This document shows positions 20,685 to 33,736 of a stretch of DNA of 64,000 nucleotides, piece by piece (the first letter of the stretch is position 1; every line of letters starts with the position of its first letter). Below the pieces are notes generated by a model that was not told the origin of the DNA, did not search any database, and saw only the letters and a program-made list of their open reading frames with translations. Location of the stretch: NCBI GenBank assembly GCA_009729775.1, contig GCA_009729775.1_4081.1. The stretch is one strand, 5' to 3'. Made by a program: the position numbers and the translations under genes. This DNA comes from Escherichia coli. GTDB taxonomy: Bacteria > Pseudomonadota > Gammaproteobacteria > Enterobacterales > Enterobacteriaceae.

Positions 20685-20770
20685 TTTAATTTCCTCTTAG
20701 TTGTCTTGATAAAATCTATTATGCCAGTACTATCAAACTATGTCAATAGTACTGTGATAATAATTTTACT
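20685..20770 (-). promoter_or_regulatory. 85-bp promoter/RBS cassette, duplicated at 20980-21065
   Basis: Near-identical sequence including TTGACA-type promoter, RBS AGAGGAAA and ATG. Confidence 0.6.
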
Positions 20771-20978
20771 TACTTTGCTTTGATGCTTTATGTTGTGCAA
20801 CTGCCATCACTACATCAGCACGAACAAAGTTAGCAACCGTATCAGTATAATATTTGATTGCATCGTCAATATCTGCGAACATCCGATACATTCCGCACCA
20901 TGATACTTTATAACCCGCTTTCACTTGTTCCAGTTTAACCAGTGAATTGTTTACTTTGATTTTTGTAATGATAGCCAT
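20766..20978 (-). CDS. hypothetical protein (70 aa)
   Basis: AGAGGAAA RBS. Confidence 0.6.
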   Translation of the reverse strand: MAIITKIKVNNSLVKLEQVKAGYKVSWCGMYRMFADIDDAIKYYTDTVANFVRADVVMAVAQHKASKQSK

Positions 20979-20979
20979 T

Positions 20980-21065
20980 TTTGTTTCCTCTTAGTTGTCT
21001 TGATAAAATCTATTATGCCAGTACTATCAATCTATGTCAATAGTACTGTGATAATAATTTTACTT
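20980..21065 (-). promoter_or_regulatory. 85-bp promoter/RBS cassette, second copy
   Basis: Direct repeat of 20685-20770. Confidence 0.6.
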
Positions 21066-21203
21066 ACTTTTTGCTTTCTTTATTGCTTCCACCTGGTCGG
21101 CCCACTCTTTACCCCATACTTGAGCGTTATAGTGATACTGACAAAGAGCAACGCCCCGTTTCAAACCAGTGATAGATTTTTTACCACATTGACAAGTTTT
21201 CAT
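21060..21203 (-). CDS. small Cys-rich protein (47 aa), not in ORF track
   Basis: Hand translation MKTCQCGKKSITGLKRGVALCQYHYNAQVWGKEWADQVEAIKKAKSK; AAGAGGAAA RBS; possible Zn-binding C-x-C...C-x-Y-H. Confidence 0.45.
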   Translation of the reverse strand: MKTCQCGKKSITGLKRGVALCQYHYNAQVWGKEWADQVEAIKKAKSK

Positions 21204-21288
21204 TTTTAGTTTCCTCTTAGTGGGGAGAATCATTTCTCCCCTTGATGTAATGTATTATACTTTATCCGATTTACTTTGCAAGTACTTT

Positions 21289-21516
21289 TTAGTTTAATTC
21301 ATCCAGGCATAAGATACGATCTACGCCGAGATCCGTTAAGCTAATGGTTGGCACTTGATAGGTTTCAATGTATTCTACACTAGCCCACTGACCGAACTCA
21401 TTCACCGCCCAGGTATTCATTGCAAAATGTAATTCCGCACCTTTCTTATTAGTAATTACAGCAACAGTAGAAGAATTGCCAGTAGTACCAGATACGCGAG
21501 TGATTACGATAGCCAT
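21289..21516 (-). CDS. hypothetical protein (75 aa)
   Basis: AGGAA RBS; ORF track. Confidence 0.6.
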   Translation of the reverse strand: MAIVITRVSGTTGNSSTVAVITNKKGAELHFAMNTWAVNEFGQWASVEYIETYQVPTISLTDLGVDRILCLDELN

Positions 21517-21586
21517 TGTTTTGATTCCTATTCAGTAGTTGATGTATGTATTATGTCAGTACTTAAAACTATTGTCAAACTATTTT

Positions 21587-21739
21587 TTAAAGACTATCTA
21601 CGATAGCTGCCGTTTCAATAATAGACTTACCTTTTTTTGAACATGCAATAACTGCTTTAAATTCCTTTGATGACCATTCTTTTTTACTGCATACTAACAT
21701 TACTTGCATAGTGAAACAATCCAGTTCATAAGTATTCAT
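21587..21739 (-). CDS. small protein (50 aa), not in ORF track
   Basis: Hand translation MNTYELDCFTMQVMLVCSKKEWSSKEFKAVIACSKKGKSIIETAAIVDSL; GAGGA RBS. Confidence 0.4.
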   Translation of the reverse strand: MNTYELDCFTMQVMLVCSKKEWSSKEFKAVIACSKKGKSIIETAAIVDSL

Positions 21740-21960
21740 CTTTAAATCCTCAGTTAGTTAAGGTGTCTTGCCTTGATGTAACTAATTATACGCCTTTCTC
21801 TTAATCGTGCAAGTACTTTTTATTACTTTTTGCAAAATACTTTAAACGCTCTCAATCGCATTCTAACGGCCTTAACTCCACCAGCTAGGGCGATGCATCA
21901 GATAATCAGTTTAATGCGTTAGAATCGATTCTATGAGGTGCTGACGGTCTGGAATGCAAT

Positions 21961-21993
21961 AAAAACAAAAAAGCCCACTGCTTATAGTGGGCT
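21961..21993 (-). terminator. rho-independent terminator
   Basis: AGCCCACT-loop-AGTGGGCT hairpin with long U-run on the minus strand, after the stop of 22015-22497. Confidence 0.7.
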
Positions 21994-22014
21994 AGTGATT
22001 CAGTACTTTAAATG

Positions 22015-22497
22015 TTATGCTTCAATTTTGCGGTGAGATTCGATCCATTCCTCGCGAGTCATACCGCTTTCTTTGATAGCATCCAGTACTACCGCAATGC
22101 AGTTACCGCGTACAGGAATCAAATGTTCTTCCCCGTTATCAAGGACAACCGTAACACGTTCTTGAATCCATTTTTTAGGCTTAGATTCCGGCTTATCTTC
22201 ACCGTACTTAACCGCCAGGGCTTTATGTGCCATTTCAATAACCACTTCCAGATCTAAACCAGACACCGCCGCCTGAATACTTTCTATTGTTGCTTGCAGT
22301 TCTGCTTCACGGGCTTTTTTCTGTTCTTCCAGTTCTGCTACCTTTTTGGCTTGTAGTTCTTTCGCTTCACTGTAAGCAATGTTAAAATTGTTGCGTACTG
22401 CTTTCATGGTATCATTATCCAGGTCAGCCAGCAATTCAGCAGCAATCACAGTATCGTTAGAAATCAGTGCTTTCAGAAATGATTTTACATTAGCCAT
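22015..22497 (-). CDS. putative H-NS-like nucleoid-associated protein (160 aa)
   Basis: Start adjusted to MANVKSF... (GAGGA RBS); N-terminal coiled-coil-like region, C-terminus LDNGEEHLIPVRGNCIAVVLDAIKESGMTREEW parallels the H-NS DNA-binding core [34 protein letters not shown]. Confidence 0.4.
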   Translation of the reverse strand: MANVKSFLKALISNDTVIAAELLADLDNDTMKAVRNNFNIAYSEAKELQAKKVAELEEQKKAREAELQATIESIQAAVSGLDLEVVIEMAHKALAVKYGEDKPESKPKKWIQERVTVVLDNGEEHLIPVRGNCIAVVLDAIKESGMTREEWIESHRKIEA

Positions 22498-22684
22498 TTT
22501 ATAAATCCTCAATTAAAGTTTAAGTTAGTTTATCAAAGTTTGTTTGACGTGTCCAGTTTTTCATTCGACTTACTGGCGGTCTACTTAATGTTCCCCGTCT
22601 TGATGTAATACATTCTACGCTTTTCCCTGGTAATGTCAACTACTTTTTTAAAACTATTTTCAAAGTATACCAGTACTACGATAA

Positions 22685-22720
22685 TACAAAAACAAAAAAG
22701 CCCACTGTTTAAGGTGGGCT
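22685..22720 (-). terminator. rho-independent terminator
   Basis: AGCCCAC-loop-GTGGGCT hairpin plus U-run on minus strand after 22738-23037. Confidence 0.7.
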
Positions 22721-22737
22721 AGTGATTCAGTACTAGA

Positions 22738-23037
22738 TTATAAACAGTTAATTACTCCGGTGTGCGTTACTTTCTCAGTATCCATCACAGTGACCGAACC
22801 GCGTTTAGTACTGGCATCATAATAAATTGTTGTGCTACCGTTTTTGTCTTCTTCATGGAACGGGCCGTTTTTAAATGCTTCCGGCTGGATCTCTAAATCC
22901 TTTAATACAATCTCGCCAGTTCTTTCATCGGTCATTGCAACAGTGCACTGAATGAATTTTTCACTACTTACATCTAATGACGCATTAACAGCGAAAGAGG
23001 AAACAGATAAAGCCAGGGCGATGATTGCAATTTTCAT
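22738..23037 (-). CDS. secreted small protein with signal peptide (99 aa)
   Basis: N-terminus MKIAIIALALSVSSFAVNAS; AAGGATA RBS. Confidence 0.6.
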   Translation of the reverse strand: MKIAIIALALSVSSFAVNASLDVSSEKFIQCTVAMTDERTGEIVLKDLEIQPEAFKNGPFHEEDKNGSTTIYYDASTKRGSVTVMDTEKVTHTGVINCL

Positions 23038-23121
23038 TTGATTATCCTTAGTTACCAGGGGGAACCGCTCCCCCTTGCTATGTAAAATATTATACAGTAC
23101 TAAAAACTAATTGCAAGTACT

Positions 23122-23358
23122 TTATGATTTTTTATAAAACATTTCGGCAGTGATATTTTTACCCGTTGGCTGTACTTTATCCAGAATTTTTTGATGCCCT
23201 GGCCGTCCAAATGAATATGATCCGTAAACCGTAAACCAGTAGTTACCCTCAGTGTTTACATGTACAGCACAATAGGGAACGCCCCGCGATTCATCACTAG
23301 TAAAGTGTGCTACCGTTCCCGTTACATTCGAAGTCGTTGATTTGATTTGTTCAAGCAT
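23122..23358 (-). CDS. hypothetical protein (78 aa)
   Basis: AAGGAATA RBS; ORF track. Confidence 0.6.
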   Translation of the reverse strand: MLEQIKSTTSNVTGTVAHFTSDESRGVPYCAVHVNTEGNYWFTVYGSYSFGRPGHQKILDKVQPTGKNITAEMFYKKS

Positions 23359-23466
23359 TTTCTTATTCCTTAGTTACCAGGGGAACCGCTCCCCTATGCA
23401 AAACATTATACGCGTTTAAAAACTATTGTCTAGTATTTTAATAAAAAGTATTTGAAAAATAGTTGT

Positions 23467-23495
23467 TGACAAGTGCATCCAGTACTGGCATAATA
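23467..23495 (+). promoter_or_regulatory. plus-strand sigma70-type promoter driving a short non-coding transcript
   Basis: TTGACA-N17-CATAAT on the plus strand; no plus-strand ORF follows. Confidence 0.45.
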
Positions 23496-23519
23496 CTTAC
23501 ATAAAGACGAGATAGTCAC

Positions 23520-23548
23520 TAACCCACAGGGTGCATAGATCCGTCTAT
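23520..23548 (-). repeat. conserved 28-bp intergenic motif (copy 6, inverted orientation)
   Basis: Plus strand reads CTAACCCACAGGGTGCATAGATCCGTCTA, reverse complement of the core. Confidence 0.65.
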
Positions 23549-23565
23549 TAAATGATTCAGTACTG

Positions 23566-23593
23566 CAAAATAAAGGGGATCAATTGATCCCCT
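23566..23593 (-). terminator. rho-independent terminator
   Basis: Perfect palindrome GGGGATCAATTGATCCCC followed by U-run on minus strand after 23599-23820. Confidence 0.7.
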
Positions 23594-23598
23594 CTGTA

Positions 23599-23820
23599 TT
23601 ACTTAGTAAGGTATAAACAGAAGTCACCTTTATTTGCTACGCCGCCAGTGTAACGCGATGAATAGTTAGAAACGTCCTGGACTTCTGCTATTACCAGTGT
23701 ATCATCATTCAATTCGTCGCAGAAGCAAACGGCTGGATCTTTTACGCCGATATTGTCGGCATGTTCCCGCATAGATTTAACCAGTGCTTCAAGTTGGGAA
23801 AGAGTAGTGATATTAGCCAT
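23599..23820 (-). CDS. hypothetical protein (73 aa)
   Basis: Start adjusted to MANITTLSQ...; GAGGAAAA RBS. Confidence 0.6.
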   Translation of the reverse strand: MANITTLSQLEALVKSMREHADNIGVKDPAVCFCDELNDDTLVIAEVQDVSNYSSRYTGGVANKGDFCLYLTK

Positions 23821-23907
23821 TTTATTTTCCTCATTACCAGGGAGAACCATTTTCTCCCCTCTATGTAAACCATTATACAGTACTAAAAACTAATTGCAAG
23901 TACTTTT

Positions 23908-24111
23908 TTAATTTAATTGCTTTAAAACATACTCAAAGACACCACGCACATCATTGATCATCGCCTGGCGGTTAGCAGGTAACGCATCAGGATCGCCACT
24001 ATCCCAGGCATTGATAAAACTCCCCAAATCATGATAGATTTTATTCTGTAAGCCGATCAACTGCAATTCTTTTTCTTCAAGCTCTTTGATACGTTCAATT
24101 AAATCACTCAT
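23908..24111 (-). CDS. hypothetical protein (67 aa)
   Basis: Start adjusted to MSDLIERIKELEEK...; AAGGA RBS. Confidence 0.55.
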   Translation of the reverse strand: MSDLIERIKELEEKELQLIGLQNKIYHDLGSFINAWDSGDPDALPANRQAMINDVRGVFEYVLKQLN

Positions 24112-24128
24112 TATATAATCCTTAGTAC

Positions 24129-24410
24129 TTAATTGTAAGATCCGCAACGGTCGCAGTAGTGCCCCTCGTCATCGTCAACGAATTGACCAACGAAATTATC
24201 TACTTTCGCTTTCAGGTTATTATAATCGTTTTCTACTTCCTTTAAACGCTTCTGGTAGTATTCCAGTGCTTTAAGATATGCCGCATCAGTAGTTTTCTCC
24301 TGCATAGCTAAATTCATGCCACGCGTTTCATCATAAAGCCAATAACCATCAGTACATTGGCTAATAGACAATGACTTGCTTAACACTGTATAGTTAATTA
24401 CTTTGCTCAT
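24129..24410 (-). CDS. hypothetical protein (93 aa)
   Basis: Start adjusted to MSKVINYTVL... Confidence 0.55.
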   Translation of the reverse strand: MSKVINYTVLSKSLSISQCTDGYWLYDETRGMNLAMQEKTTDAAYLKALEYYQKRLKEVENDYNNLKAKVDNFVGQFVDDDEGHYCDRCGSYN

Positions 24411-24500
24411 TAGATAACCCTCAGTAAAGGCGGGAACCACTCCCCGCCTCGATATAAAGTATTATACGCTTTTAAACTTAGTATGCAAGTACTTTTTAAA

Positions 24501-25112
24501 TTAATATGCGATAGATTCTACTACATCGTCGATAACGTTAAATTGATATTCGTTACCCTCAATCAGTCCTACAATGTTTTCAGTAGTAAACTGGTCTTCA
24601 TAAGCATTTTCTAAATCACGGTACAGCTTACAAGATAATTCTCGGATAGTATCAGTCAGTAAGTTTTCCAGATCCTCAGCTAATGCAGCCTGTTTTACAG
24701 TTAAATCAGTGTAGCGAGTATCAACGCAACCGCCTACCGTGTTTTCGTGAGCGTAGCGTGATTGGGAACGTTCTACACTCATTTCCAAATCATCTTCGTT
24801 CAACAGGTGACGGATGGAACGATATTTCGTTAACGCCTTAACCTTGCGTAAAAACTTCTCAGCGTCAACGTGGTCAGTACTGATTGATGCACCGTCACCT
24901 TGCGACCAAAAACCACTGTATTGCAATTCAGCTTCATCTATGCCGTATTCTGGCAGTACTGTTTCTTTATAGTATTCCAGTACTGATTCAGCAAAGAAAT
25001 TATCCTCACTTGCACGTTCCCGATCCCGAACCAGTTCGATAGCCGCCGCTTGTTGTTCTGCGTTCAGTTCAGAAAAATCCATAACGAAAGTAGTAGTAGT
25101 GATAGTTTTCAT
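24501..25112 (-). CDS. hypothetical acidic protein (203 aa)
   Basis: GAGGG RBS; ORF track. Confidence 0.65.
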   Translation of the reverse strand: MKTITTTTFVMDFSELNAEQQAAAIELVRDRERASEDNFFAESVLEYYKETVLPEYGIDEAELQYSGFWSQGDGASISTDHVDAEKFLRKVKALTKYRSIRHLLNEDDLEMSVERSQSRYAHENTVGGCVDTRYTDLTVKQAALAEDLENLLTDTIRELSCKLYRDLENAYEDQFTTENIVGLIEGNEYQFNVIDDVVESIAY

Positions 25113-25180
25113 TTTGTAACCCTCATTCAGTAGTTGATGTAAGTATTATACGCTTTTAAAAACAATTGTCAAACTATTTT

Positions 25181-25256
25181 ATCAGGGGAGTTTTTCGTGT
25201 GCCTTACTCCTGGGCTACTTAACGGGAAGTTACTTATTTCGTTCCCCGTCCTGATG
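25181..25256 (-). promoter_or_regulatory. two-hairpin leader element between tandem promoters (copy 2)
   Basis: Near-identical to 14596-14668. Confidence 0.5.
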
Positions 25257-25325
25257 TAAAACATTATACGCCTTTAAACATAGTTTGCAAGTACTTTTTG
25301 AAAATAGTTTTTATCTCTTTCATAT

Positions 25326-25353
25326 AGATACATTCCCGCACCCTATGGGCTAT
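25326..25353 (+). repeat. conserved 28-bp intergenic motif (copy 7)
   Basis: AGATACATTCCCGCACCCTATGGGCTAT. Confidence 0.65.
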
Positions 25354-25411
25354 CGCCTTGTGTCCGGCTTGTAAGTATTATCTCACTAAGCCGGATAACG
25401 GTCAAGTACTT

Positions 25412-25678
25412 TTATTCAAGTACTGCAATCTTTTTAGTACTGTATACAGTAACGCGGTTGCCCTTTCGGTCGTGCTTTATTTCTACCACTCGACGCGATA
25501 CACTATCAGGACTTTTTAAAACCGATCTCCAGTACTGAATTGATCGGGCTGTACTTTGCTTTACTACGGCCCAACGTTTACCACGTTCAGAATGTACGCC
25601 CATATCTTTAAACGTCGCCCCGTCCTGGCGTGCGGCAATCCGAGCAAGTTCACGCGTTGCAAAGTATATAATATTCAT
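25412..25678 (-). CDS. hypothetical protein (88 aa), paralog of 13221-13616
   Basis: Start adjusted to MNIIYFATRELARI...; shared IKHDRKGNRVTVYS block. Confidence 0.6.
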   Translation of the reverse strand: MNIIYFATRELARIAARQDGATFKDMGVHSERGKRWAVVKQSTARSIQYWRSVLKSPDSVSRRVVEIKHDRKGNRVTVYSTKKIAVLE

Positions 25679-25760
25679 GCTGTTACCCCTATCGTTGTTG
25701 TATAAAAGAAATCTATTATAAAGTACTATCACCGTGCAATAGTACTTTTAATCTATTCTC

Positions 25761-26000
25761 TTACATTCCAACCATCGCCGCACGGATCGCAGTAGTGCTA
25801 TACTTAAAGCCGTCCGGTGTTTTATCTTGTCCAGTCTGTTCTAAAAATAGCATCATATGACGGGCCGCATCATTACGATTAGTGTTAGCGGCAATAAAGT
25901 CCTGGGCCAACCGGTATAATGATTCGTCGTTATTAATCCAAAGGCTTACATTCCATTGAGTTTTGTTTTTGTGACCTAAGAACATTTTTGATTTAGCCAT
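25761..26000 (-). CDS. hypothetical protein (79 aa)
   Basis: Start adjusted to MAKSKMFLGHKN...; AGAGGA RBS. Confidence 0.55.
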   Translation of the reverse strand: MAKSKMFLGHKNKTQWNVSLWINNDESLYRLAQDFIAANTNRNDAARHMMLFLEQTGQDKTPDGFKYSTTAIRAAMVGM

Positions 26001-26093
26001 TTTTTTAATCCTCTTATATAGTGGGGAACTATTCCCCACCTGATGTAAAACATTATACGCTTTTAAACTTAGTTTGCAAGTACTTTATTAAAC

Positions 26094-26456
26094 TTATTCG
26101 TAAATCTTTCCACTATCAGCCCATACCAGGAAACGAGGCATATTATCCCATGCATCTTGTTTTAAATTTAAACCGTGTAATACTTCTGTACTTTCCATTC
26201 CTGGTACTGGTTTACTATACACCGCGAACATTTCGCCCATGTACTGATAAGCCATCGTTAAATCACTGGCGATCATCTTATGAATCATCGCATCAAGCAT
26301 CACGGTAGCGGCGTATTGTTCACGCTTAAGCGGTAACATTGCAATAAGTTCCCGATAAGCTGAAATGTGAATTTTTACCGTTTCAGCCGGAAGATCTTTC
26401 ATCTCTTCACGGAAGTTAACCAGGTTAGCAATAATTTTAGTGATTTGAGTAGCCAT
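26094..26456 (-). CDS. hypothetical protein (120 aa)
   Basis: Start adjusted to MATQITKIIANLV...; AGAGAG RBS. Confidence 0.6.
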   Translation of the reverse strand: MATQITKIIANLVNFREEMKDLPAETVKIHISAYRELIAMLPLKREQYAATVMLDAMIHKMIASDLTMAYQYMGEMFAVYSKPVPGMESTEVLHGLNLKQDAWDNMPRFLVWADSGKIYE

Positions 26457-26762
26457 CGTTTTAATCTCTCTTAAAGTGTAGCGGGAAGTGTTCCCGCTCT
26501 CGATGTAAAACATTATACGCCTATCGGGATAGTATGCAAGTACTTTCTACTAATACTTTTAAAATAGTTTTCTTTCTATATAGGAGTACTATCATTCAGT
26601 ACTGAATCAACCAAATCACTACTATACCCCATAAAACGGCCTCAGCCGCTTTCTAACGCATTAATACACCTAAGCTATACATTTGCACCGCCACCAGCTA
26701 ACCAGGGCTTTATAGGCCGTTTAAGGGCGTTAAATTATTTTCAATTATTTTGTTTTTAGCTA

Positions 26763-26790
26763 TTGACTCAGTACAAAAAAAGCGTATAAT
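26763..26790 (+). promoter_or_regulatory. plus-strand sigma70-type promoter in non-coding hub
   Basis: TTGACT-N16-TATAAT; no ORF downstream. Confidence 0.45.
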
Positions 26791-26977
26791 TACTACATAG
26801 ACGCGAGAAAGCGGATACCCCAGGGGGTGGGAAGATCCGTCCAAAATTCATATAATTTAAAAAGGATACACTCCCGCACCTTAGCAGGTCATAGCACTTT
26901 CTCAGTACTGAATCATAGTACCATAGTACGCCCCTGGATGGCAAGCAAATTAATTAAAACTTTTTACATCCAGGGTA

Positions 26978-27005
26978 TTGCTTTATTTTTCCAGTACTGT
27001 ATAAT
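26978..27005 (+). promoter_or_regulatory. plus-strand promoter-like element in non-coding hub
   Basis: TTGCTT-N16-TATAAT followed by motif copy 8. Confidence 0.35.
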
Positions 27006-27029
27006 AGTTTCATCAAGTCGAGAAAGACT

Positions 27030-27057
27030 CAAGCCCACCGGGTGCATAGTTGTATCT
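27030..27057 (-). repeat. conserved 28-bp intergenic motif (copy 8, inverted orientation)
   Basis: Plus strand reads CAAGCCCACCGGGTGCATAGTTGTATCT. Confidence 0.65.
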
Positions 27058-27102
27058 AAAATTCAGTACTGAATTATTTTTTAAAAATATCCATCCAGGC
27101 GG

Positions 27103-27131
27103 TTGACATATCCATCAAAAAGATAGATAAT
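27103..27131 (+). promoter_or_regulatory. plus-strand sigma70-type promoter reading into the iteron block
   Basis: TTGACA-N17-GATAAT; followed by GGGGAAACCATCCCC hairpin. Confidence 0.45.
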
Positions 27132-27224
27132 GATTCCAGATTCAGAAAAATCTAACTCCAGATACTGCGGGGAAACCATCCCCACGCGGTAGGGGAACTA
27201 TTGGAAAAAACAAAATAAAAATTT

Positions 27225-27400
27225 TGATTTAGCCGTCTGTACTTCCAGACGTGTAACCATCTAGCCGTTTAGCCGTCCAAACGTCTAGCCATCCAGCCGC
27301 CTAGAGGGATAGCCATCTTTACTTCCAGACTTCTGGAGGGCTAGACATATCTACGTCCAAAATCCACCCAGGGTAACTACGCCCAAAATCCGTCAGTACT
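27225..27400. repeat. iteron-like cluster of short direct repeats
   Basis: TAGCCGT/TAGCCAT repeated at least 5 times, ACTTCCAGAC twice, CCAAAATCC twice, within about 180 bp of non-coding DNA. Confidence 0.6.
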
Positions 27401-27942
27401 ATACTATAGATCTATCTTTTGAAAGGGAGTATTCAGTACTGCCACAATAGCCCTCACTGTTACTGTAGGAGGATGAAGACTATCATGTAGTACTGAATAC
27501 TGTTAGAGGGAATCCACCAGCTTGTGCTGGTGGCATAATGCATTAGATTAAAATCAGTACTGACACCATTCTGTTAATATCAGTACTGTTTATATTACGA
27601 AAAAAGAGGTTATAAAAAGATGTACCACCCATAGGAGGAACTATCCTTTCAGTACTGTCTCACGACAGGAGGTAGAGTGAATGAATTGTTTGCGGCAACT
27701 CATCTCTCTATGTAGAACATTATACAGTACTGAATCATAATGTCAATAGCTTTCTTTCATTATTCAGTACTGAAATCGTATAATCTGTATCGCTACAAAA
27801 CTCATTATATCCCACAAATCCTATATGTCCCAACGTAAATTTCAACTTTCGAAGATCCAACTTTTATTTCATAGGTACTCCAAATTTTTTACGATCCAGA
27901 TTTAGGATGGAGTACTAACCAACTTTTTGCTGGAGCCTCAAG

Positions 27943-27990
27943 GGGTAATTGAATTTTACCCCGAATGGTAAAGGGGTAATTGAAATTAAG
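27943..27990. repeat. GGGGTAATTGAA direct repeat with embedded hairpin
   Basis: GGGGTAATTGAATTTTACCCC inverted repeat followed by a second GGGGTAATTGAA. Confidence 0.5.
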
Positions 27991-28009
27991 GTGAAAGTAA
28001 TAATTCAGT

Positions 28010-28260
28010 ACTAATCATTGCGTGATTACTTTTGATTACATTTGATGTAATTTGCAAAATGGAAAAGGAGCTTGGAAACTACAAAGTACGGCAGACTTCC
28101 TCTGCCTACTTAGTGGCATATCAGTACTGCTACGTTCTTGATTAAACGTGAACATTCCTGTACTCTAGTACTCACTACTGATCACTACAGTGATTATAAA
28201 TGATTACTTAAATGTTTATATATGATTACTTATGACTACCTATGATTACGGGGTTTAGCC
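28010..28260. repeat. cluster of TGATTAC heptamer repeats
   Basis: At least 7 copies of TGATTAC (or TGACTAC) in about 250 bp of non-coding DNA. Confidence 0.55.
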
Positions 28261-28363
28261 TGGGGAGAATCCTAGTGATCGCATTTGTCCAGGCTGAATT
28301 TTAACAATTCGCCTGTACATAAAGGTTGTTCACTAGGAGCTTCCCCTGTCTACTTGTGTTTAA

Positions 28364-28555
28364 TTACTTCCTATATATAAGCATTAAGATATAGTAGTAC
28401 TGATTATACTGTACATTCTCTTTAATATTATAAGGGTCTATCGCAATCTCGGTACATCTGTTAAATGCATATCTATTAAATGCCAGTGGAATTATAGATC
28501 TAATCCATACTTGTTCATTTTCTTTTAGTTTACTTATATAGAAGTTTTTATACAT
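28364..28555 (-). CDS. family-C small paralog (63 aa)
   Basis: One of about 10 tandem about 65-aa ORFs; MYKNFY start, C-terminal LIYRK. Confidence 0.5.
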   Translation of the reverse strand: MYKNFYISKLKENEQVWIRSIIPLAFNRYAFNRCTEIAIDPYNIKENVQYNQYYYILMLIYRK

Positions 28556-28570
28556 AGTATTCTCTATTAA

Positions 28571-28753
28571 TTAATATGATAGTACTAGTGTTAGTACTGA
28601 GCACAATTGTTCTTTATAGTTCTTAGGGTATATAGAATCTTTTATGCACTCATTGAAGTGCCATAGGTATAATCTTGGGTCGCATTCTTTATATATTCTT
28701 ACGGGGACGAATGTTAGTTTTCGTATATAGAATTCTTTATGTTCTTTATTCAT
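28571..28753 (-). CDS. family-C small paralog (about 60 aa)
   Basis: Start adjusted to MNKEHKEFY... Confidence 0.5.
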   Translation of the reverse strand: MNKEHKEFYIRKLTFVPVRIYKECDPRLYLWHFNECIKDSIYPKNYKEQLCSVLTLVLSY

Positions 28754-28754
28754 A

Positions 28755-28943
28755 TTAGTACCTGAATATAAGTAGGATAGTGTTATATAGCTGGTCATAT
28801 GTACTACTATTTTCTATACTTCGTTCTATGCAGTTATTGAATCCCAGTACTGCCAAATCGTTATCCAGGGGGACTTTGTATCTGGCGTAGTGTTCAAAAA
28901 TGCTGGGGAGAAATTGTTTGTAGTATTCTTTGTGGTTATTCAT
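28755..28943 (-). CDS. family-C small paralog (62 aa)
   Basis: MNNHKEYY start. Confidence 0.55.
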   Translation of the reverse strand: MNNHKEYYKQFLPSIFEHYARYKVPLDNDLAVLGFNNCIERSIENSSTYDQLYNTILLIFRY

Positions 28944-28944
28944 A

Positions 28945-29127
28945 TTAGTACCTGAATGTTAGCATTACTACGTAGTACAGCATATATGGATTATCATCGT
29001 ATATGAGCGTGTACTTAGTACATTGTTGGAACATTATCTTTGCGTGATCTTTTATTCCTATTGGTTCTGTTGGTATATGGTGCTGGAGATGCATAGGGAT
29101 TTTATCCCTGTAGTATTCTTTATGCAT
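28945..29127 (-). CDS. family-C small paralog (about 60 aa)
   Basis: Start adjusted to MHKEYYRDK... Confidence 0.5.
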   Translation of the reverse strand: MHKEYYRDKIPMHLQHHIPTEPIGIKDHAKIMFQQCTKYTLIYDDNPYMLYYVVMLTFRY

Positions 29128-29779
29128 AGTTTGTAATATACGTAATGAGGTGATGCATTTTCTTATTAGTACTGATAAGTTCCTGTACATGTTTTGTTAG
29201 TTTGTACGCGTTTTTATAGAGTCCTGGATTATCGATTACAGTACTGTACATGAATTCTTCTTCTGGTGTTAATTCTTTGTTTTGTAGTTCTTTTAGGAAT
29301 TGCAGTACTGTATCAGTTTCGTTAGTACGTTGCTTTTGGAAGAAGTGCATGTTATCGTGTATTTTTTCTGAACCCATGCAGTACATATCGCCGATTTGGA
29401 ATTGTGCAGTACTGATATCATGGGTGCTATTACAATTCCCGAAGAAGTATACATTCCCGAAAGATAGAATTATAGTGCACGGGATATTATCCATGTGTAT
29501 ATAGATAGATGCATTCTTTAGTGCTTTTGTGCTGGTATTAGTACTCAATACTTTTAAATCAGTATTATAGATATTAATAAAAGCAAGAGCTATATTATTT
29601 TTCTTCAAGTACGATTTGAGGTTCTTAGATACGAGAACATTTCTGGATTTTTTCTTTTTATTTCGTTTCTTTAGTACATTTGGGTGATACATATATGCAG
29701 ATGTAATAGATTCTGCTTGAATACTGTTGAGGTACTTAAAGTGCTTAAGGTATTGTTTGCTGTGTGCATTAAGTTTCAT
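29120..29779 (-). CDS. hypothetical protein (219 aa) embedded in family-C array
   Basis: ORF track; no recognisable motif. Confidence 0.55.
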   Translation of the reverse strand: MKLNAHSKQYLKHFKYLNSIQAESITSAYMYHPNVLKKRNKKKKSRNVLVSKNLKSYLKKNNIALAFINIYNTDLKVLSTNTSTKALKNASIYIHMDNIPCTIILSFGNVYFFGNCNSTHDISTAQFQIGDMYCMGSEKIHDNMHFFQKQRTNETDTVLQFLKELQNKELTPEEEFMYSTVIDNPGLYKNAYKLTKHVQELISTNKKMHHLITYITNYA

Positions 29780-29977
29780 TTGGTTTCCTTTATACAGATG
29801 CCAGGGCGAGGATTTCCCTGTAGGGATTATCTTGTGTTAGTACAGCATAAATGCAGCTATTGAGATTAATATTTTTAGTACTTTTTGTTCCTAGGTTGTA
29901 GTACTTCACGAAGGTGTCGTACATGAAACGGTCGTTAATGCTTATTCTTTCTATATAGTATTCTTGCATAGTGTACC

Positions 29978-30160
29978 TTAAATAGCGATTAGTTTCATTA
30001 CTTCTCTGTATGTATACTTTTCGTTTTGTGCATCTCTTGTGACGACATATAGGAAGGTGTGTTTATCTTTTTTGTTCCCGCAATTGTAGAAAATATTGAA
30101 CTTATTGAAGTTGAATCTTTCGGCGTGTTGTAGTTTAGTTAAATAGAATTCTATGTTCAT
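29978..30160 (-). CDS. family-C small paralog (60 aa)
   Basis: MNIEFY start; KYTYREVMKLIAI C-terminus like 30169-30354. Confidence 0.5.
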   Translation of the reverse strand: MNIEFYLTKLQHAERFNFNKFNIFYNCGNKKDKHTFLYVVTRDAQNEKYTYREVMKLIAI

Positions 30161-30168
30161 TTTATTCC

Positions 30169-30354
30169 TTACATTTCAATAAGTTTCAGTACTGCTCGGT
30201 ACGTGTACTTAGTTGTCAGTGCTTCTTTAATAGAAATACAGAAGTAATGTTGTTTGTCTCTTATACTGCCGCGTTTGTAGTACCACACATGGGAGTTGTG
30301 ACTGTACTTGTCTCTGTCGGATAGTTGTTGGTAGTAGTAGCTTATATGATTCAT
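30169..30354 (-). CDS. family-C small paralog (61 aa)
   Basis: KYTYRAVLKLIEM C-terminus. Confidence 0.5.
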   Translation of the reverse strand: MNHISYYYQQLSDRDKYSHNSHVWYYKRGSIRDKQHYFCISIKEALTTKYTYRAVLKLIEM

Positions 30355-30406
30355 TGTAATGCAATTATCCTTACTATATTAAAGTACTCGATCCTTGGTG
30401 TACTTT

Positions 30407-30601
30407 TTAGAACTTAAAGATGAGGTTCAGGATAGAGCGGTACTTAGTTGCAGGGAACGTATGTTCTATTGCATCACGTGTCTCCATCCTGAAATCGTAA
30501 TTGTAATATAGATTATTCTTTCTCATAGGTCGTGCTAAAGAGAATGATAGCTGTTCTTGCTTGTGTAGTTTACTACAATAGAAATCTTTATGATTATTCA
30601 T
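30407..30601 (-). CDS. family-C small paralog (64 aa)
   Basis: MNNHKDFY start. Confidence 0.55.
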   Translation of the reverse strand: MNNHKDFYCSKLHKQEQLSFSLARPMRKNNLYYNYDFRMETRDAIEHTFPATKYRSILNLIFKF

Positions 30602-30803
30602 AGAAGTAGATTAGTCCTATTAAACCTGAGTACATAATATTTTTGTTATTGCATTCGATTGCTTCTAGAGTACTACGTATACAATTATTAAAGCAATCTC
30701 TACCGAAGTGAGTATTGGTACTTACAGGTGATACACTCCTTAGAAACAATTGTTCTTCGTTGCTAAGGTATTTGGTGTAGAATTCTTTATGTTCAGTATT
30801 CAT
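30594..30803 (-). CDS. family-C small paralog (69 aa)
   Basis: MNTEHKEFY start. Confidence 0.55.
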   Translation of the reverse strand: MNTEHKEFYTKYLSNEEQLFLRSVSPVSTNTHFGRDCFNNCIRSTLEAIECNNKNIMYSGLIGLIYFYE

Positions 30804-30804
30804 A

Positions 30805-31008
30805 TTAGTGCTCGATTAATAGGGTCAGGATATAATAGTATTGCATACTTTCTGCCCCTTGTAAAGCATTTCTTATTTTATTATTCCTGTACGAGTTCAG
30901 GAGTTTAGGACAACGTTTGTAGTCTATAAAAGTATTTTGTGTATACAGTAGGCTTTCTCGTAGACCTTTTGTTGGTAGTGCATCGATGTAGTACTGTTCA
31001 ATGTTCAT
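30805..31008 (-). CDS. family-C small paralog (67 aa)
   Basis: MNIEQYY start. Confidence 0.5.
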   Translation of the reverse strand: MNIEQYYIDALPTKGLRESLLYTQNTFIDYKRCPKLLNSYRNNKIRNALQGAESMQYYYILTLLIEH

Positions 31009-31232: not shown

Positions 31233-31334
31233 GTGTAGTTCTCCTTATATTCCTTCTATAGTACACCAGTACTGAAAGGATGTCAAGGGTTTTCTTTATG
31301 GGGTAAATATGATATAATGAATAAGGAGGGATTT

Positions 31335-32483
31335 ATGTTACCTTTTGCAAGAATGATGAATTACGGGAATATTGCCCCTGGTGATGATGGACGTTTTAAA
31401 ATATATTCCAGTGATTCCATGTATCTTCATGATACTTATACTGATAAGTTGTATGCATCTTCTGCGACGAATTGGGGTACTGGAACAGGTGTAGCATCGA
31501 GTAAATTTATTCTTTGTGCGGAGAATGTTAAACGAGTTCTATTGGAAGATAACAGTAGTGATTGTCAATTGTACGAAGAGAAAGGTACGGGAAAAGTTTT
31601 TATCACTGGCAACACGAAGGCATTCACTGGTGTAACTGATAGAAAAACTTTGTGGACGGAATGTACTACGTGGATAACATCAGGTGGTATTAATGTTTCT
31701 GATATAAAATACATGAGTAGTTTTAATGATATGAAGGTAAATTTGATAACAAACGATGGTACATTGTATTGTTGTGGAGCTAACAATAACTCTAACCTAT
31801 CATCATTTGGTGATGGTACAAACATTAATTCTTTTAACACATTCAAAAGGGTAGATACTATAACTTCGGTTAAAAAGGCAGTTGGTAACATATACCTAAA
31901 AGAAGATAATACTTTATGGGGTTGTGGTTTTAACTATTACTATCAGTTAGGTACAGGCAATCAAACTTCTATTACTGGGGTGACGATGATTGCTTCGGAT
32001 GTTATAGATTTTGATGTAAGTTATCAGAGTACATTTTTTATTAAATCAGATAATAATTTGTACGCATGTGGTAAACAGTTCGGTGCACAATACGGGAACG
32101 AATTTGGCACAGGTGGTACTTCTTCATCTACAGATATACAATACAAAACTCCAACATTATTGAGTTCAGGAGTTTATACTTTATATACTTGTGTTAGTAA
32201 CATGGCATCTCATATTGTCAAAAAAGATGAAGTTATGTATGCATCTGGTTCGAATGGGTTTGGTCAATTAGGTGTTGGTAATAATATTAATCAGTACTCC
32301 TATACTCCTTCGTATACTTCTTTTAATAGTTCGTGTGATTTGGTACGCAGTCCATCTGGATCACTTATACTTACGGATACTGGAAAATTATATTATTGTG
32401 GCCCTGCAATATTAGTAATGGGGGGAATTGCTGGACAAAACATTCTTAGTTATACAGAAGTAGATATGTCATTTATACAATGA
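31335..32483 (+). CDS. RCC1-like beta-propeller repeat protein, paralog 1 (382 aa)
   Basis: Start at MLPFARM with AAGGAGGG RBS; repeated G-x-N-x-x-GQLG-x-G type motifs. Confidence 0.75.
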   Translation: MLPFARMMNYGNIAPGDDGRFKIYSSDSMYLHDTYTDKLYASSATNWGTGTGVASSKFILCAENVKRVLLEDNSSDCQLYEEKGTGKVFITGNTKAFTGVTDRKTLWTECTTWITSGGINVSDIKYMSSFNDMKVNLITNDGTLYCCGANNNSNLSSFGDGTNINSFNTFKRVDTITSVKKAVGNIYLKEDNTLWGCGFNYYYQLGTGNQTSITGVTMIASDVIDFDVSYQSTFFIKSDNNLYACGKQFGAQYGNEFGTGGTSSSTDIQYKTPTLLSSGVYTLYTCVSNMASHIVKKDEVMYASGSNGFGQLGVGNNINQYSYTPSYTSFNSSCDLVRSPSGSLILTDTGKLYYCGPAILVMGGIAGQNILSYTEVDMSFIQ

Positions 32484-32491
32484 ATTAATAT

Positions 32492-32520
32492 GCCAGTACT
32501 TGATACTGGCTTTTCTTATT
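32492..32520 (+). terminator. rho-independent terminator of RCC1 cassette
   Basis: GCCAGTActtgaTACTGGC hairpin followed by T-run; repeated after every paralog. Confidence 0.7.
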
Positions 32521-32533
32521 GTATTAAATATAG

Positions 32534-32556
32534 TATAATGAATAAAGGAGGGAATT
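32534..32556 (+). promoter_or_regulatory. conserved cassette promoter/RBS (TATTAAATATAGTATAATGAATAAAGGAGG)
   Basis: TATAAT box and AAGGAGG RBS conserved upstream of each RCC1-like gene; promoter class not resolved. Confidence 0.5.
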
Positions 32557-33666
32557 ATGTTACCTTTTGCAAGGATGGTTAAGTACGGAAATATTGTACC
32601 TGGTCCTAAAAATATAATTAAAGTTGGTGCTTCTACACAAGGACAATTCTTATTGACTGATTCACATGATTTATATTACATAGGTAGAAATCAAGGTGGT
32701 GAATCTGGAAATGGTAATACCAACACGGTATCTTCATGGATATTAGTAAGTGCAGATGTTTCTAATTTTTTCGTGGGTGATCGTACACTTGTTATTATTA
32801 AAAATGATAATACGATATGGACATCAGGTCAAACGTACTGGTTCTCATCTTCTACAACTACTTCTTACAGTACTGTATTAGTTGAAAGAACTAATTGGTT
32901 TACCAATGCTATACCAGTAAGTGAAATTGCTAATATTGTATGTACAAATGGTTTAATATTTGTACTTAGCACTAATTCAGTACTCTATGGTGCAGGAGAT
33001 AATGGATATCGTGGTTCTTTGGGTATTGGTTCCTCATCAATTTACACATTAACTCAATGTGCTACGAACGTTCGTAAAGTAATGACCAATGCGAATGATA
33101 GTATGTATCTTACATTAGATAATAAGCTATATAGTTCTGGATGGAATAGTAGTGGGCAGCATGGTACGGGGAACCAAACACAAATTAACACTTGGGGATT
33201 GCGTAGTTCTGGTGTAATCGATGCAGCCATTGGTGGTAATGCATTAAATTACTATAATGGTACATCATATTTCGTATGTGGTCAAACTCCAAACTTTCTT
33301 AGTTCAGGTACGACTACATTCCGTGCAGTTCCTGTAAGTACCTTGCCTAATAGTTCTCCATTGTTTATGACGAATTCACCTGCCTTAAATACTGCTACAC
33401 AAATGGTAATTACTAGTACATATCAGAAGGGTGTTGGGGCGAACCGTGGTTTGGGATTAAACAATTCCCAAACTGGTGCTATATATAGTGCTACCAATTT
33501 ACAATTACCCGTTGAAGTTAGTGAGATTAGGGATGTTCTTTTTAGTGATGGTTTGACATCGTTATTAACCAAAAATGGAGATGTGTATAGTACTGGATCG
33601 TATTACGCCATTCCAGGTGCAATCGAGGATGTTGCAGTCTTTACTAAAATTGATTTACCAAAATAA
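32557..33666 (+). CDS. RCC1-like beta-propeller repeat protein, paralog 2 (369 aa)
   Basis: MLPFARMVKYGNIVP start; SGWNSSGQHGTGN and similar repeats. Confidence 0.75.
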   Translation: MLPFARMVKYGNIVPGPKNIIKVGASTQGQFLLTDSHDLYYIGRNQGGESGNGNTNTVSSWILVSADVSNFFVGDRTLVIIKNDNTIWTSGQTYWFSSSTTTSYSTVLVERTNWFTNAIPVSEIANIVCTNGLIFVLSTNSVLYGAGDNGYRGSLGIGSSSIYTLTQCATNVRKVMTNANDSMYLTLDNKLYSSGWNSSGQHGTGNQTQINTWGLRSSGVIDAAIGGNALNYYNGTSYFVCGQTPNFLSSGTTTFRAVPVSTLPNSSPLFMTNSPALNTATQMVITSTYQKGVGANRGLGLNNSQTGAIYSATNLQLPVEVSEIRDVLFSDGLTSLLTKNGDVYSTGSYYAIPGAIEDVAVFTKIDLPK

Positions 33667-33673
33667 CATAATG

Positions 33674-33704
33674 CCAGTACTTGATACTGGCTTTTATTTT
33701 TTGA
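33674..33704 (+). terminator. rho-independent terminator of RCC1 cassette
   Basis: GCCAGTACTTGATACTGGC plus T-run. Confidence 0.7.
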
Positions 33705-33736
33705 TTAAATATAGTATAATGAATAAAGGAGGAATT

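Follow-up and report, generated by a model that had tools for sequence, protein, structure and literature searches.

A tandem array of putative host MetJ operator boxes near the terminus of an Asteriusvirus-like jumbo phage genome

What is the function of a cluster of short direct repeats located close to the physical end of a jumbo coliphage genome? The question was raised by a 64-kb stretch of DNA (hereafter the window), which we find to be an Asteriusvirus-like jumbo phage, and in which a first-pass annotation had noted iteron-like repeats directly downstream of a plus-strand promoter and suggested a replication origin or a partition/packaging site. We report that the repeats form one gap-free array of sixteen 8-bp units, that the majority consensus of these units, AGACGTCT, is the operator box ("metbox") of the Escherichia coli methionine repressor MetJ, and that similar arrays are present in the terminal regions of several unrelated phages. 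Our data thus raise the possibility that phages exploit a host metabolic repressor in a way not described in the literature that could be searched; binding of MetJ is inferred from sequence alone.

The repeats described by the first-pass annotation are real. TAGCCGT is present at 27230, 27262 and 27270, and TAGCCAT at 27286 and 27310, with a CAGCCGC variant at 27294, while ACTTCCAGAC at 27241 and 27321 and CCAAAATCC at 27357 and 27383 are unique to this spot in the window. Whether the repeats exceed chance expectation had been set as a test beforehand, and the clustering is far beyond chance: TAGCCRT occurs 22 times on the plus strand of the window and five of these fall within 87 bp. Most of the other TAGCCAT copies are the reverse complement of ATGGCTA start codons of minus-strand ORFs, e.g. 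the ORF ends 14039, 18450, 20684, 20978 and 21516 each equal a TAGCCAT start plus 6. The repeats were, however, under-described. The spacings are 32, 8, 16, 8 and 16 bp, all multiples of 8, and every copy is in one register of the array. The period-8 self-match is the highest in the whole window (0.54 against a mean of 0.27, sd 0.05), and Tandem Repeats Finder reports period 16 with the consensus TCCAGACGTCTAGCCA. The two ACTTCCAGAC copies are 80 bp (10 units) apart and belong to the array, whereas the CCAAAATCC copies belong to an 18-nt direct repeat at its distal edge. The plus-strand promoter is also present, as a prediction. The features of the region are collected in Table 1.

Table 1. 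Coordinates (window positions) of the array and of associated features, with the data on which each assignment is based
Position	Strand	Feature	Basis
27072..27131	+	Predicted sigma70-type promoter P_out, directed toward the array and the genome end: A/T tract (27072-27089), -35 TTGACA (27103-27108), 17-bp spacer, -10 GATAAT (27126-27131)	Consensus scan, 11 of 12 matches; promoter with A/T-rich upstream tract at the same position in Asterius-, Eneladus- and Mimasvirus relatives (alignment); function inferred
27156..27206	+	Conserved leader: predicted hairpin CTGCGGGGAAACCATCCCCACGCGG (27165-27189) with outer stem 27156-27159/27192-27195, followed by the near-invariant AGGGGARCTAWTGGAA (27191-27206)	RNAalifold on 7 phages from 3 genera predicts 14 pairs, four with compensatory changes; G-U pairs allowed only on the + strand; columns invariant in the alignment
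27207..27230	.	A/T-rich spacer (AAAACAAAATAAAAATTTTGATT) between leader and array	Read from the sequence; in Serratia phage BF the equivalent tract plus the first two boxes reads as a terminator-like hairpin with a T-run on the minus strand
27231..27358	+	Array of sixteen contiguous 8-bp units in one register, majority consensus AGACGTCT; eleven units score 4.7-10.7 bits, five weaker units (-0.3 to 1.6 bits) are interspersed	Unit scores and periodicity; position-frequency matrix correlates with the published MetJ matrix at r = 0.92 (seven other registers, r <= 0.03)
27247..27302	+	Core of the array: seven contiguous boxes all passing the published MetJ site criteria (50.5 bits)	Only site in the window under the published matrix and thresholds
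27348..27391	+	Two copies of an 18-nt direct repeat (27348-27365, TATCTACGTCCAAAATCC; 27374-27391, TAACTACGCCCAAAATCC) containing CCAAAATCC	Repeat search; an ACNCCCAAAAT motif also follows the array in Eneladus- and Mimasviruses
27719..27746	-	Predicted sigma70-type promoter (TTGACA-16-TATAAT, CAGTACTG filling the spacer), directed back toward the array	12 of 12 matches; comparable minus-strand promoter-like sites about 400 bp beyond the array in phages CBB and BF; function inferred
28090..28110	.	Position corresponding to the physical left end of the packaged genome (about 28110), next to the hairpin GGCAGACTTCCTCTGCC (28090-28106)	Base 1 of fEgEco12 aligns with window 28110; fEgEco12 termini determined by PhageTerm and confirmed by restriction digests (PMC13070987)
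8290..28110	.	Direct terminal repeat (DTR) of about 20 kb, present once (collapsed) in the window and containing the array; left coordinate approximate	fEgEco12 DTR is 1-20,993 and its inner boundary maps to about 8290; DTRs of 20.7-22.5 kb are reported for Sharanji, vB_Ec-M-J and CBB

To identify a candidate binder, the window was scanned with the published MetJ weight matrix and thresholds (Augustus and Spicer 2011; PMC3228920), i.e., at least two adjacent boxes, each scoring at least 1/4 of the consensus, and a whole site scoring at least one consensus box (12.58 bits). Four further strong in-register boxes flank the seven-box core. The best of 40 dinucleotide shuffles scores 20.3 bits, and the same scan recovers the E. 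coli metJ/B operator (31.2 bits) and metF operator (24.9 bits) and nothing else in 7 kb. The pooled matrix of 128 boxes from 9 phages correlates with that of MetJ at r = 0.91, and the second-choice bases (R at position 5, Y at position 8 and C at position 3) are also the second choices of MetJ. The length differences among five Asteriusviruses are 0, 8, 24, 24 and 32 bp, always whole units. As in natural MetJ operators, the units are 8 bp, head to tail and without spacing, with R at position 5, Y at position 8 and a Y-R step at the box junctions. On the other hand, natural operators have 2-5 boxes, overlap a promoter and lie at methionine genes, while this array has sixteen, starts about 93 bp downstream of the predicted transcription start of a phage promoter (about 93-220 bp downstream of the promoter overall) and lies in the terminal repeat of a virulent phage; no methionine-pathway gene was detected among the 10 flanking ORFs and 136 small ORFs (<=140 aa) that were scanned, larger ORFs being left out. 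The boxes are also systematically asymmetric, with AGCC left half-sites: in the 128 boxes the right half-site is consensus (T6, the mirror of position 3, 89%; C7 83%) but position 3 is C in 47%, against 10% in real metboxes, and A3 is a directly contacted base in the MetJ-operator crystal structure. A long perfectly symmetric array would be one long palindrome, which may explain the asymmetry, although this is inference only. Moreover, variation among orthologous boxes does not track MetJ information content significantly (rho = -0.44, p = 0.28).

Arrays of 7-28 boxes are present in the terminal regions of Rak2-like jumbo phages (Asterius-, Eneladus- and Mimasviruses), several Demerecviridae and a T7-like coliphage (Autographiviridae). 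Examples are PR1 (9 near-perfect AGACGTCY boxes, 88.5 bits), AhSzq-1 (28 boxes, 221 bits), Pontus (15 boxes) and PGT2. The promoter, leader hairpin and array are conserved as a module in three jumbo-phage genera. The lineages are not fully independent witnesses, since the 20-nt string CATTTAGCCGTCTAAACGTCTA is shared by PGT2 and Mimasviruses, which suggests horizontal transfer. Of 96 phage records hit by the array, 95 have hosts in Enterobacterales, Vibrionales or Aeromonadales, and MetJ exists only in these orders plus Pasteurellales and Alteromonadales; relatives of the present phage infect E. coli and Salmonella. The exception among reported hosts is that of XbC2, which carries an intact array but is reported to infect Xanthomonas, which lacks MetJ. 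The array is absent from T5 and from two related jumbo phages, Klebsiella phage fENko-Kae01 and Xanthomonas phage XaC1, as would suit an accessory host-interaction element.

We also searched for a phage-encoded binder. tblastn of E. coli MetJ against the window (best E = 0.26) and against 50,697 phage records returned only host-DNA contaminants. A regex search for RHH (ribbon-helix-helix) proteins gave nothing, Pfam detected no RHH, MetJ, Arc, CopG or ParG family member among the 136 small ORFs, and phmmer with ParD, Arc, omega, RelE, ParE and an RHH-like protein from Kocuria marina (see below) gave nothing; these searches covered only 64 kb of a genome of about 350 kb. PGT2 gp03 and the window ORF 25761-26039 (DUF7249), the one protein shared near the arrays of PGT2 and Asteriusviruses, are 73-80% identical and lie 1-2 kb from the arrays, but this family is widespread in phages without arrays and absent near the Eneladus-, Mimas- and Demerecviridae arrays, and was therefore rejected as a linked binder; no shared linked gene tracks the array. 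BLAST of the array against 72,556 plasmids (PLSDB) and against E. coli genomes gave no match, ARAGORN and Rfam at gathering thresholds find no tRNA or known RNA family in the window, and Fur boxes are not enriched in it. To test taxon specificity, 100,044 bacterial genomes were scanned for four strict boxes, which returned 63 loci, nearly all perfect (AGCCGTCC)n or (AGCCATCC)n microsatellites in MetJ-less bacteria. Natural operators are too degenerate to match this pattern and the scan is therefore uninformative about MetJ, but it does show that this 8-mer family occurs without MetJ; the same strict pattern in IMG/VR found only PR1 and three metagenome contigs. The scan also revealed that Kocuria marina, a MetJ-less actinobacterium, has a 9-box AGACGTCT/AGACATCT array directly after an RHH-like ORF (RLTIRLPQETYKQLQRATVEM...), on three contigs. 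No paper linking metboxes or MetJ sites with phage DNA was found within the limits of the literature accessible to us.

Taken together, we favor, as somewhat more likely than not, that the array is a "super-operator" for host MetJ, an RHH dimer that binds one box per dimer, binds cooperatively to adjacent boxes and requires S-adenosylmethionine (SAM) as co-repressor. The analysis establishes the exact 8-bp register and its match to the MetJ matrix, its uniqueness in the window, the conservation of the module, its recurrence in the terminal regions of unrelated terminal-repeat phages and its position 0.76-0.88 kb inside the left end between convergent promoter sequences of the sigma70 type. SAM-dependent binding of MetJ, and all that would follow from it, is inferred: in a SAM-replete cell 11-16 MetJ dimers would coat about 128 bp as one cooperative filament. 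Such a filament might act as a SAM-dependent roadblock or insulator between the outward and inward promoters. In addition, since each genome carries two copies and the array is far longer than any natural operator, replicating phage DNA might act as a high-capacity sink for the MetJ of the cell, which would de-repress methionine and SAM synthesis, including metK, a member of the MetJ regulon. These phages encode several SAM-dependent DNA methyltransferases; Sharanji, a close relative, encodes three DNA methyltransferases, and PGT2 has an early SAM-dependent methyltransferase about 2.6 kb from its array. Each of these two consequences taken alone is less likely than MetJ binding itself and remains doubtful; T5-type phages degrade host DNA early, and a repressor sink would be pointless for the Demerecviridae that carry arrays. 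The concept of a clustered locus lowering the free concentration of a regulator is illustrated by datA, but datA is a host locus with five DnaA boxes plus IHF, whereas here the putative sink is carried by an invading genome and amplified by its replication.

The first-pass interpretation was only partly supported: the repeats are of the kind that proteins bind, lie directly downstream of a predicted promoter and are close to the end where the genome is cut for packaging, but the specific readings as origin iterons, partition site or pac site are not supported. An origin, with the array as iterons, the adjacent 24-bp A/T tract as unwinding element and the promoter providing transcriptional activation or an R-loop primer, as at lambda ori or T4 oriF and oriG, agrees with the order of these elements in a non-coding, repeat-rich region and with a local minimum of the cumulative GC skew near 28000. 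However, the units are contiguous 8-mers and not 17-22-bp iterons spaced by helical turns, there are no DnaA boxes in 26000-28500, no Rep or other initiator was detected in the flanking or small ORFs, the A/T tract is not conserved next to arrays in other lineages, and most of the skew change coincides with a switch in gene orientation at 31.3 kb, only the minus-strand genes at 28.4-31.0 kb remaining unexplained. We consider an origin very unlikely, and likewise a packaging or terminus signal (a terminase recognition site or a signal for duplication of the terminal repeat, analogous to the heptamer arrays next to the terminal repeat of T7), although the array lies 760-880 bp from the position of the mapped terminus and arrays lie within about 0.04-1 kb of a physical end in CBB, BF, XbC2, PGT2 and PR1 (in PR1 counting the copy in the right-hand repeat). 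Its absence from fENko-Kae01, XaC1 and T5, which share the genome type, and its presence in Autographiviridae, Demerecviridae and Rak2-like myoviruses argue against a core replication or packaging signal (terminases themselves were not part of this comparison). The orientation of the array relative to the nearest end differs between PR1 and Asteriusvirus or PGT2, and a separate cluster of TGATTAC repeats straddling the cut site is a better candidate. The short-repeat arrays (SRL/SRR, CCTAAAG-type) next to the T7 terminal repeats, of long-puzzling function (Dunn and Studier 1983), are reportedly also within a few hundred bp of the ends, upstream of or among the early host-RNA-polymerase promoters, but differ in sequence, are irregularly spaced (about 12-15 bp) and do not resemble a host operator.

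Another protein reading the same 8-bp code, phage-encoded, virion-borne or an unrecognised host protein and most plausibly RHH, is possible but less likely than MetJ; the resemblance to metboxes would then reflect shared RHH chemistry, and the function could be centromere-like, end-binding or regulatory. The AGCC asymmetry is unexpected for a symmetric MetJ dimer, and the Kocuria array and XbC2 are in keeping with this view. RHH centromere binders such as ParG of TP228 (parH) and omega of pSM19035 use contiguous 7-8-bp periodic arrays of 7-12 units, each bound by one dimer, forming a protein helix around the DNA, the same physical principle as expected here. Yet no ParA, ParB or ParG hit was found in the flanking ORFs or among the small ORFs, no plasmid stage is known for this virulent phage, and phages of three families that share few genes would each need the same binder. 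Finally, MetJ boxes might serve as an injection-stop-like brake or anchor, where host proteins halt or ratchet the incoming DNA, as Davison proposed for the DnaA boxes of the T5 iss region (bioRxiv 10.1101/866236), which is annotated at 9140-10149 of a 10,219-bp repeat. Both regions are large, untranslated, repeat- and palindrome-rich stretches inside a long terminal repeat carrying small early-type genes, with clustered (here putative) binding sites for a host DNA-binding protein; the 20-kb repeat resembles the first-step-transfer DNA of T5. In the Demerecviridae PR1, AhSzq-1, D254 and Pontus the arrays lie 100-250 bp from perfect DnaA boxes, and in PR1 the array is at the inner edge of the left repeat, the iss-equivalent position. 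Here it is at the outer edge, which would be iss-like only if the right end enters first, the terminal region lacks DnaA boxes, and T5 has DnaA boxes but no array. This reading presupposes two-step injection in jumbo phages, still needs MetJ or another binder and hence overlaps with our main explanation; we regard it as unlikely.

A broader and speculative reading, which we consider unlikely though not excluded, is that virulent terminal-repeat phages of enterobacteria, vibrios and aeromonads carry long arrays of MetJ operator boxes in the terminal regions of their genomes, either as a decoy that strips the cell of free MetJ, switching on methionine and SAM supply for the phage methyltransferases and protein synthesis, or as a SAM-sensing gate on early or terminal transcription or on DNA entry. 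Together with the DnaA boxes, and possibly Fur-like boxes, seen in the terminal regions of other phages, this would point to a general and unrecognised strategy in which phage genome ends act as landing pads for host regulators. If MetJ coats these arrays, it would be an unusual case of a virulent phage carrying the operator of a host metabolic repressor as a long array in its terminal repeat, the co-factor of that repressor, SAM, being the methyl donor for the methyltransferases these phages encode. It would offer a concrete, testable handle on two old puzzles: what the conserved untranslated repeat blocks near the ends of T5-, T7- and jumbo-type genomes do, and whether phages manipulate host regulons by titrating transcription factors. 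If the binder is instead an unknown protein, the arrays still define a conserved, mobile, terminus-associated DNA element shared across phage families.

Bases 26000-29000 of the window are 88-93% identical to Escherichia phages 121Q, PBECO4, SP27, G17 and Sharanji, which belong to the genus Asteriusvirus (350-kb Rak2-like jumbo myoviruses). The repeats are located in a stretch of about 1.5-1.8 kb without any credible ORF, flanked on both sides by small minus-strand genes, and no tRNA and no Rfam family is present. The repeat words listed in the first-pass annotation were all recovered at their reported positions and the cluster is not due to chance, i.e. the observation holds. However, the structure is tighter than the 8-16 bp spacing that had been described, since all TAGCC starts are equal modulo 8 and the sequence, when read in 8-mers from 27231, is one uninterrupted array of sixteen units: AGCCGTCT GTACTTCC AGACGTGT AACCATCT AGCCGTTT AGCCGTCC AAACGTCT AGCCATCC AGCCGCCT AGAGGGAT AGCCATCT TTACTTCC AGACTTCT GGAGGGCT AGACATAT CTACGTCC. 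The period-8 self-match at this position is the maximum of the whole window, about 5 sd above the mean, and Tandem Repeats Finder gives a 16-bp consensus, TCCAGACGTCTAGCCA. The two ACTTCCAGAC copies correspond to units 2-3 and 12-13 of the array, while the CCAAAATCC copies belong to an 18-nt direct repeat at its distal edge. Outside the array TAGCCAT, which is strongly strand-biased in the window (17 on the + strand and 1 on the minus strand), is mostly the reverse complement of ATGGCTA, that is the start codon plus Ala of minus-strand genes in the terminal repeat.

The majority consensus of the sixteen units is AGACGTCT, which is the "metbox", the 8-bp operator unit of the E. coli methionine repressor MetJ. 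MetJ binds one dimer per box and binds cooperatively to tandem boxes. The published information-weight matrix and site criteria (Augustus and Spicer 2011, Table 3; PMC3228920) were applied unchanged, and the 64-kb window was found to contain exactly one site, which comprises seven contiguous boxes and scores 50.5 bits (a perfect box is 12.58 bits); four more strong boxes are present in the same register. Forty dinucleotide shuffles of the window never exceeded 20.3 bits. In a 7-kb piece of E. coli K-12 the same procedure identified the two known operators and nothing else, metJ/B with 4 boxes and 31.2 bits, and metF with 4 boxes and 24.9 bits. Moreover, stretches of the phage array read like the natural metF operator, cf. 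CATCTTTACATCTGGACGTCTAAACGGATAGATG in metF with CATCTTTACTTCCAGAC and GTCTAAACG...GGATAGCC in the phages.

The array is conserved, with variation, in every Asteriusvirus examined. G17 has 12 contiguous boxes (89 bits), vB_Ec-M-J 14 (105 bits) and fEgEco12 15 (109 bits), while 121Q has 7+4+4, and between fixed flanking anchors the array lengths are 151, 159, 175, 175 and 183 bp such that all differences are whole units. The array is also present in Eneladusvirus (Yersinia fHe-Yen9-04 and Serratia BF), in Mimasvirus (GAP32, CBB and XbC2) and in three metagenomic relatives. BLAST searches using the array also gave hits in phages from other families. Among the Demerecviridae, Aeromonas AhSzq-1 has 28 boxes (221 bits), Vibrio Pontus 15 boxes and Providencia PR1 9 almost perfect AGACGTCY boxes (88.5 bits). 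Vibrio phage D254, which is unclassified in its record but has paired DnaA boxes nearby, has 8 boxes, the T7-like coliphage PGT2 has 9 boxes, and a Vibrio siphovirus was also hit. Pooling 128 boxes from nine phages gave a position-frequency matrix that correlates at r = 0.91 with the MetJ matrix, whereas the seven other registers gave r <= 0.03, and the tolerated alternatives (A or G at position 5, C or T at position 8, C at position 3) are the second-commonest bases in real metboxes.

MetJ exists only in Enterobacterales, Pasteurellales, Vibrionales, Aeromonadales and Alteromonadales. The 96 phage records hit by the array infect Escherichia, Salmonella, Yersinia, Serratia, Cronobacter, Erwinia, Pectobacterium, Providencia, Vibrio and Aeromonas, with one exception, XbC2, which is reported on Xanthomonas vesicatoria and has 37.5% G+C against about 65% for that host. 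The independence of these records is limited, since the lineages number perhaps four and PGT2 and the Mimasviruses share the 20-nt string CATTTAGCCGTCTAAACGTCTA, which suggests that the array moves horizontally. No MetJ homologue is encoded in any phage record, nor in the window.

Many of the hits lie a few hundred bases from record ends or inside annotated direct terminal repeats. The ends of fEgEco12 were defined by PhageTerm and confirmed by restriction digests, giving a 20,993-bp repeat (PMC13070987), and its first base aligns with window position 28110, right after the hairpin GGCAGACTTCCTCTGCC. The window therefore holds one collapsed copy of a direct terminal repeat of about 20 kb, and the array lies 760-880 bp inside the left physical end. 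In PGT2 the array is about 40-110 bp from the left end, and in PR1 it is at the iss-equivalent position of T5-like phages, and about 0.8 kb from the right physical end in the other repeat copy. In the Demerecviridae and in D254 the arrays lie 100-250 bp from perfect DnaA boxes, the feature highlighted by Davison in T5 iss regions in a paper that does not mention MetJ. T5 itself, the Klebsiella jumbo phage fENko-Kae01 (repeat 19,736 bp) and the Xanthomonas jumbo phage XaC1 (repeat 32 kb) have no array anywhere in their repeats. Sequences matching the 19-bp Fur-box consensus at 15-17 of 19 positions were detected in the terminal untranslated region of fENko-Kae01, and also inside the injection-stop region of T5; the enrichment is about sixfold over shuffles in fENko-Kae01, but the consensus is A/T-rich and this is a weak lead.

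Coordinates of the array, its surroundings and related features (window positions unless another record is named)
Feature	Record	Position	Strand
Stretch without credible ORF	window	about 26513/26850 to 28364	
Untranslated terminal block dense in CAGTACTG	window	26597-28122	
Near-consensus sigma70 promoter with A/T tract	window	27072-27131	+
Leader hairpin	window	27165-27189	+
MetJ-type site, seven contiguous boxes	window	27247-27302	
Further strong in-register boxes	window	27231, 27311, 27327, 27343	
TTGACA-16-TATAAT promoter	window	27746-27719	-
Hairpin GGCAGACTTCCTCTGCC and position aligned to the left end of fEgEco12	window	28090-28110	
Collapsed direct terminal repeat (inner boundary approximate)	window	about 8290-28110	
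TGATTAC and close variants	window	28023-28039 and 28191-28249	
TAGCCAT outside the array (examples)	window	14033, 18444, 20678, 20972, 21510, 25994 and others	+
CAGTACTG (examples)	window	11240, 16387, 19548, 27725, 50588 (minus strand), 26992 (plus strand)	
DUF7249 ORF	window	25761-26039	-
Small genes just outside the terminal repeat	window	28364-31008	-
Eight consecutive ORFs of 358-449 aa	window	31317-41203	+
Terminal repeat	CBB	1-22,456	
Array	CBB	679-809	
Terminal repeat	PR1	1-10,461	
Array	PR1	9624-9691	
Fur-box-like sequences	fENko-Kae01	775-799 and 2342-2360	
Fur-box-like sequences	T5	9653-9718	
RHH-like ORF ending inside a 9-box array	Kocuria marina contig (locus L028; also L029 and L030)	175-246	

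Upstream of the array, the predicted + strand promoter is followed by the leader hairpin, which is supported by four compensatory pairs across three genera and has G-U pairs that work only on the + strand, and then by the near-invariant AGGGGARCTAWTGGAA, an A/T spacer and the array. About 360 bp beyond the array a perfect TTGACA-16-TATAAT promoter sequence on the minus strand points back at it, and similar convergent candidates exist in CBB and BF. No ORF of 40 or more codons lies on the + strand between the array and the end. The palindrome CAGTACTG occurs 58 times in the window against fewer than 1 expected (AGTACT occurs 260 times against about 22 expected), and in several near-perfect sigma70-type promoters it fills the spacer right up to the -10 (TTGACA-N9-CAGTACTG-TATAAT); it may be an operator or a promoter element for a phage factor. 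With respect to the wider surroundings, the eight consecutive plus-strand ORFs form a block on the opposite strand to the surrounding small genes, and this block coincides with positive GC skew. The minus-strand small genes just outside the terminal repeat also have positive GC skew on the + strand (+0.13 to +0.17), opposite to the minus-strand genes inside the repeat.

The first-pass annotation had suggested that the repeats resemble iterons of a replication origin or partition/packaging sites, and this interpretation is only partly supported by our data. Presence of the array in phages of different families and its absence from close kin argue that it is an accessory element rather than a core origin or packaging signal. 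TGATTAC and close variants, which are repeated at 10-12-bp spacing on both sides of the terminus position with five exact copies within 227 bp (although the word is not enriched in the window overall), are a better candidate for a terminase or end-recognition signal than the array. Several observations also speak against MetJ as the binder. The left half-sites are mostly AGCC rather than AGAC (C3 is 47% against 10% in real sites) while the mirror position is consensus, for which a symmetric dimer gives no obvious reason; one possible reason, which is inference only, is that a long perfectly symmetric array would be one long palindrome and therefore unstable. Variability among orthologous boxes does not significantly follow MetJ information content, the array does not overlap a promoter, and the reported host of XbC2 lacks MetJ.

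A non-MetJ binder remains a live alternative. A scan of 100,044 bacterial genomes for four strict boxes gave no enterobacterial hits, because natural operators are too degenerate, but 63 loci in MetJ-less bacteria. Most of these are perfect (AGCCGTCC)n or (AGCCATCC)n microsatellites, 4-17 copies long, that recur in Streptomyces, Verrucomicrobia, Gemmatimonadetes, Chlorobi, Lysobacter and others, and several have identical flanks within one genome, which suggests repeated elements. However, in Kocuria marina, an actinobacterium that has no MetJ, an RHH-like ORF (...RLTIRLPQETYKQLQRATVEMDTKVNPVVVAAIERVL...) runs directly into, and ends inside, a 9-box AGACGTCT/AGACATCT array on three contigs, and hence other RHH proteins may read the same code. 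Against this alternative, Pfam and phmmer searches found no RHH protein among 136 small ORFs of the window; single members, at coordinates not resolved by the batch scan, hit a ParE-like toxin domain (3e-10), a DksA/TraR zinc finger (1.6e-10) and GNAT acetyltransferase (8e-10). The one protein shared near the arrays of PGT2 and Asteriusviruses, a small ORF of Pfam family DUF7249 that in the window is 73-80% identical to gp03 of PGT2, does not track the arrays; it has close homologues in rV5-like and many other phages and looks like a promiscuous early gene exchanged between unrelated coliphages. The array also matches nothing in 72,556 plasmids or 5,426 E. coli genomes.

Taken together, the best explanation is a phage-borne super-array of host MetJ operator boxes near the genome end, where the sequence-level identity with MetJ operators is demonstrated by the analysis while binding of MetJ is inferred. 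The metbox is already known as a host operator unit, but in the literature searched we found no paper connecting metboxes with phage DNA, and the prediction is specific, unexpected and cheap to test. We consider it somewhat more likely than not that MetJ is the binder, while each of the downstream roles is considerably less likely. T5-type phages destroy host DNA early, so a repressor sink cannot be the whole story for the Demerecviridae, where an entry- or end-related role is possible. If MetJ-SAM binds as it does at natural operators, 11-16 dimers would coat about 128 bp, which should block RNA polymerase coming from either convergent promoter in a SAM-dependent way. Sharanji encodes three DNA methyltransferases and PGT2 has an early SAM-dependent methyltransferase near its array. 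Since there are two copies of the array per genome, multiplied by replication, the arrays could also soak up the MetJ of the cell and de-repress methionine and SAM synthesis.
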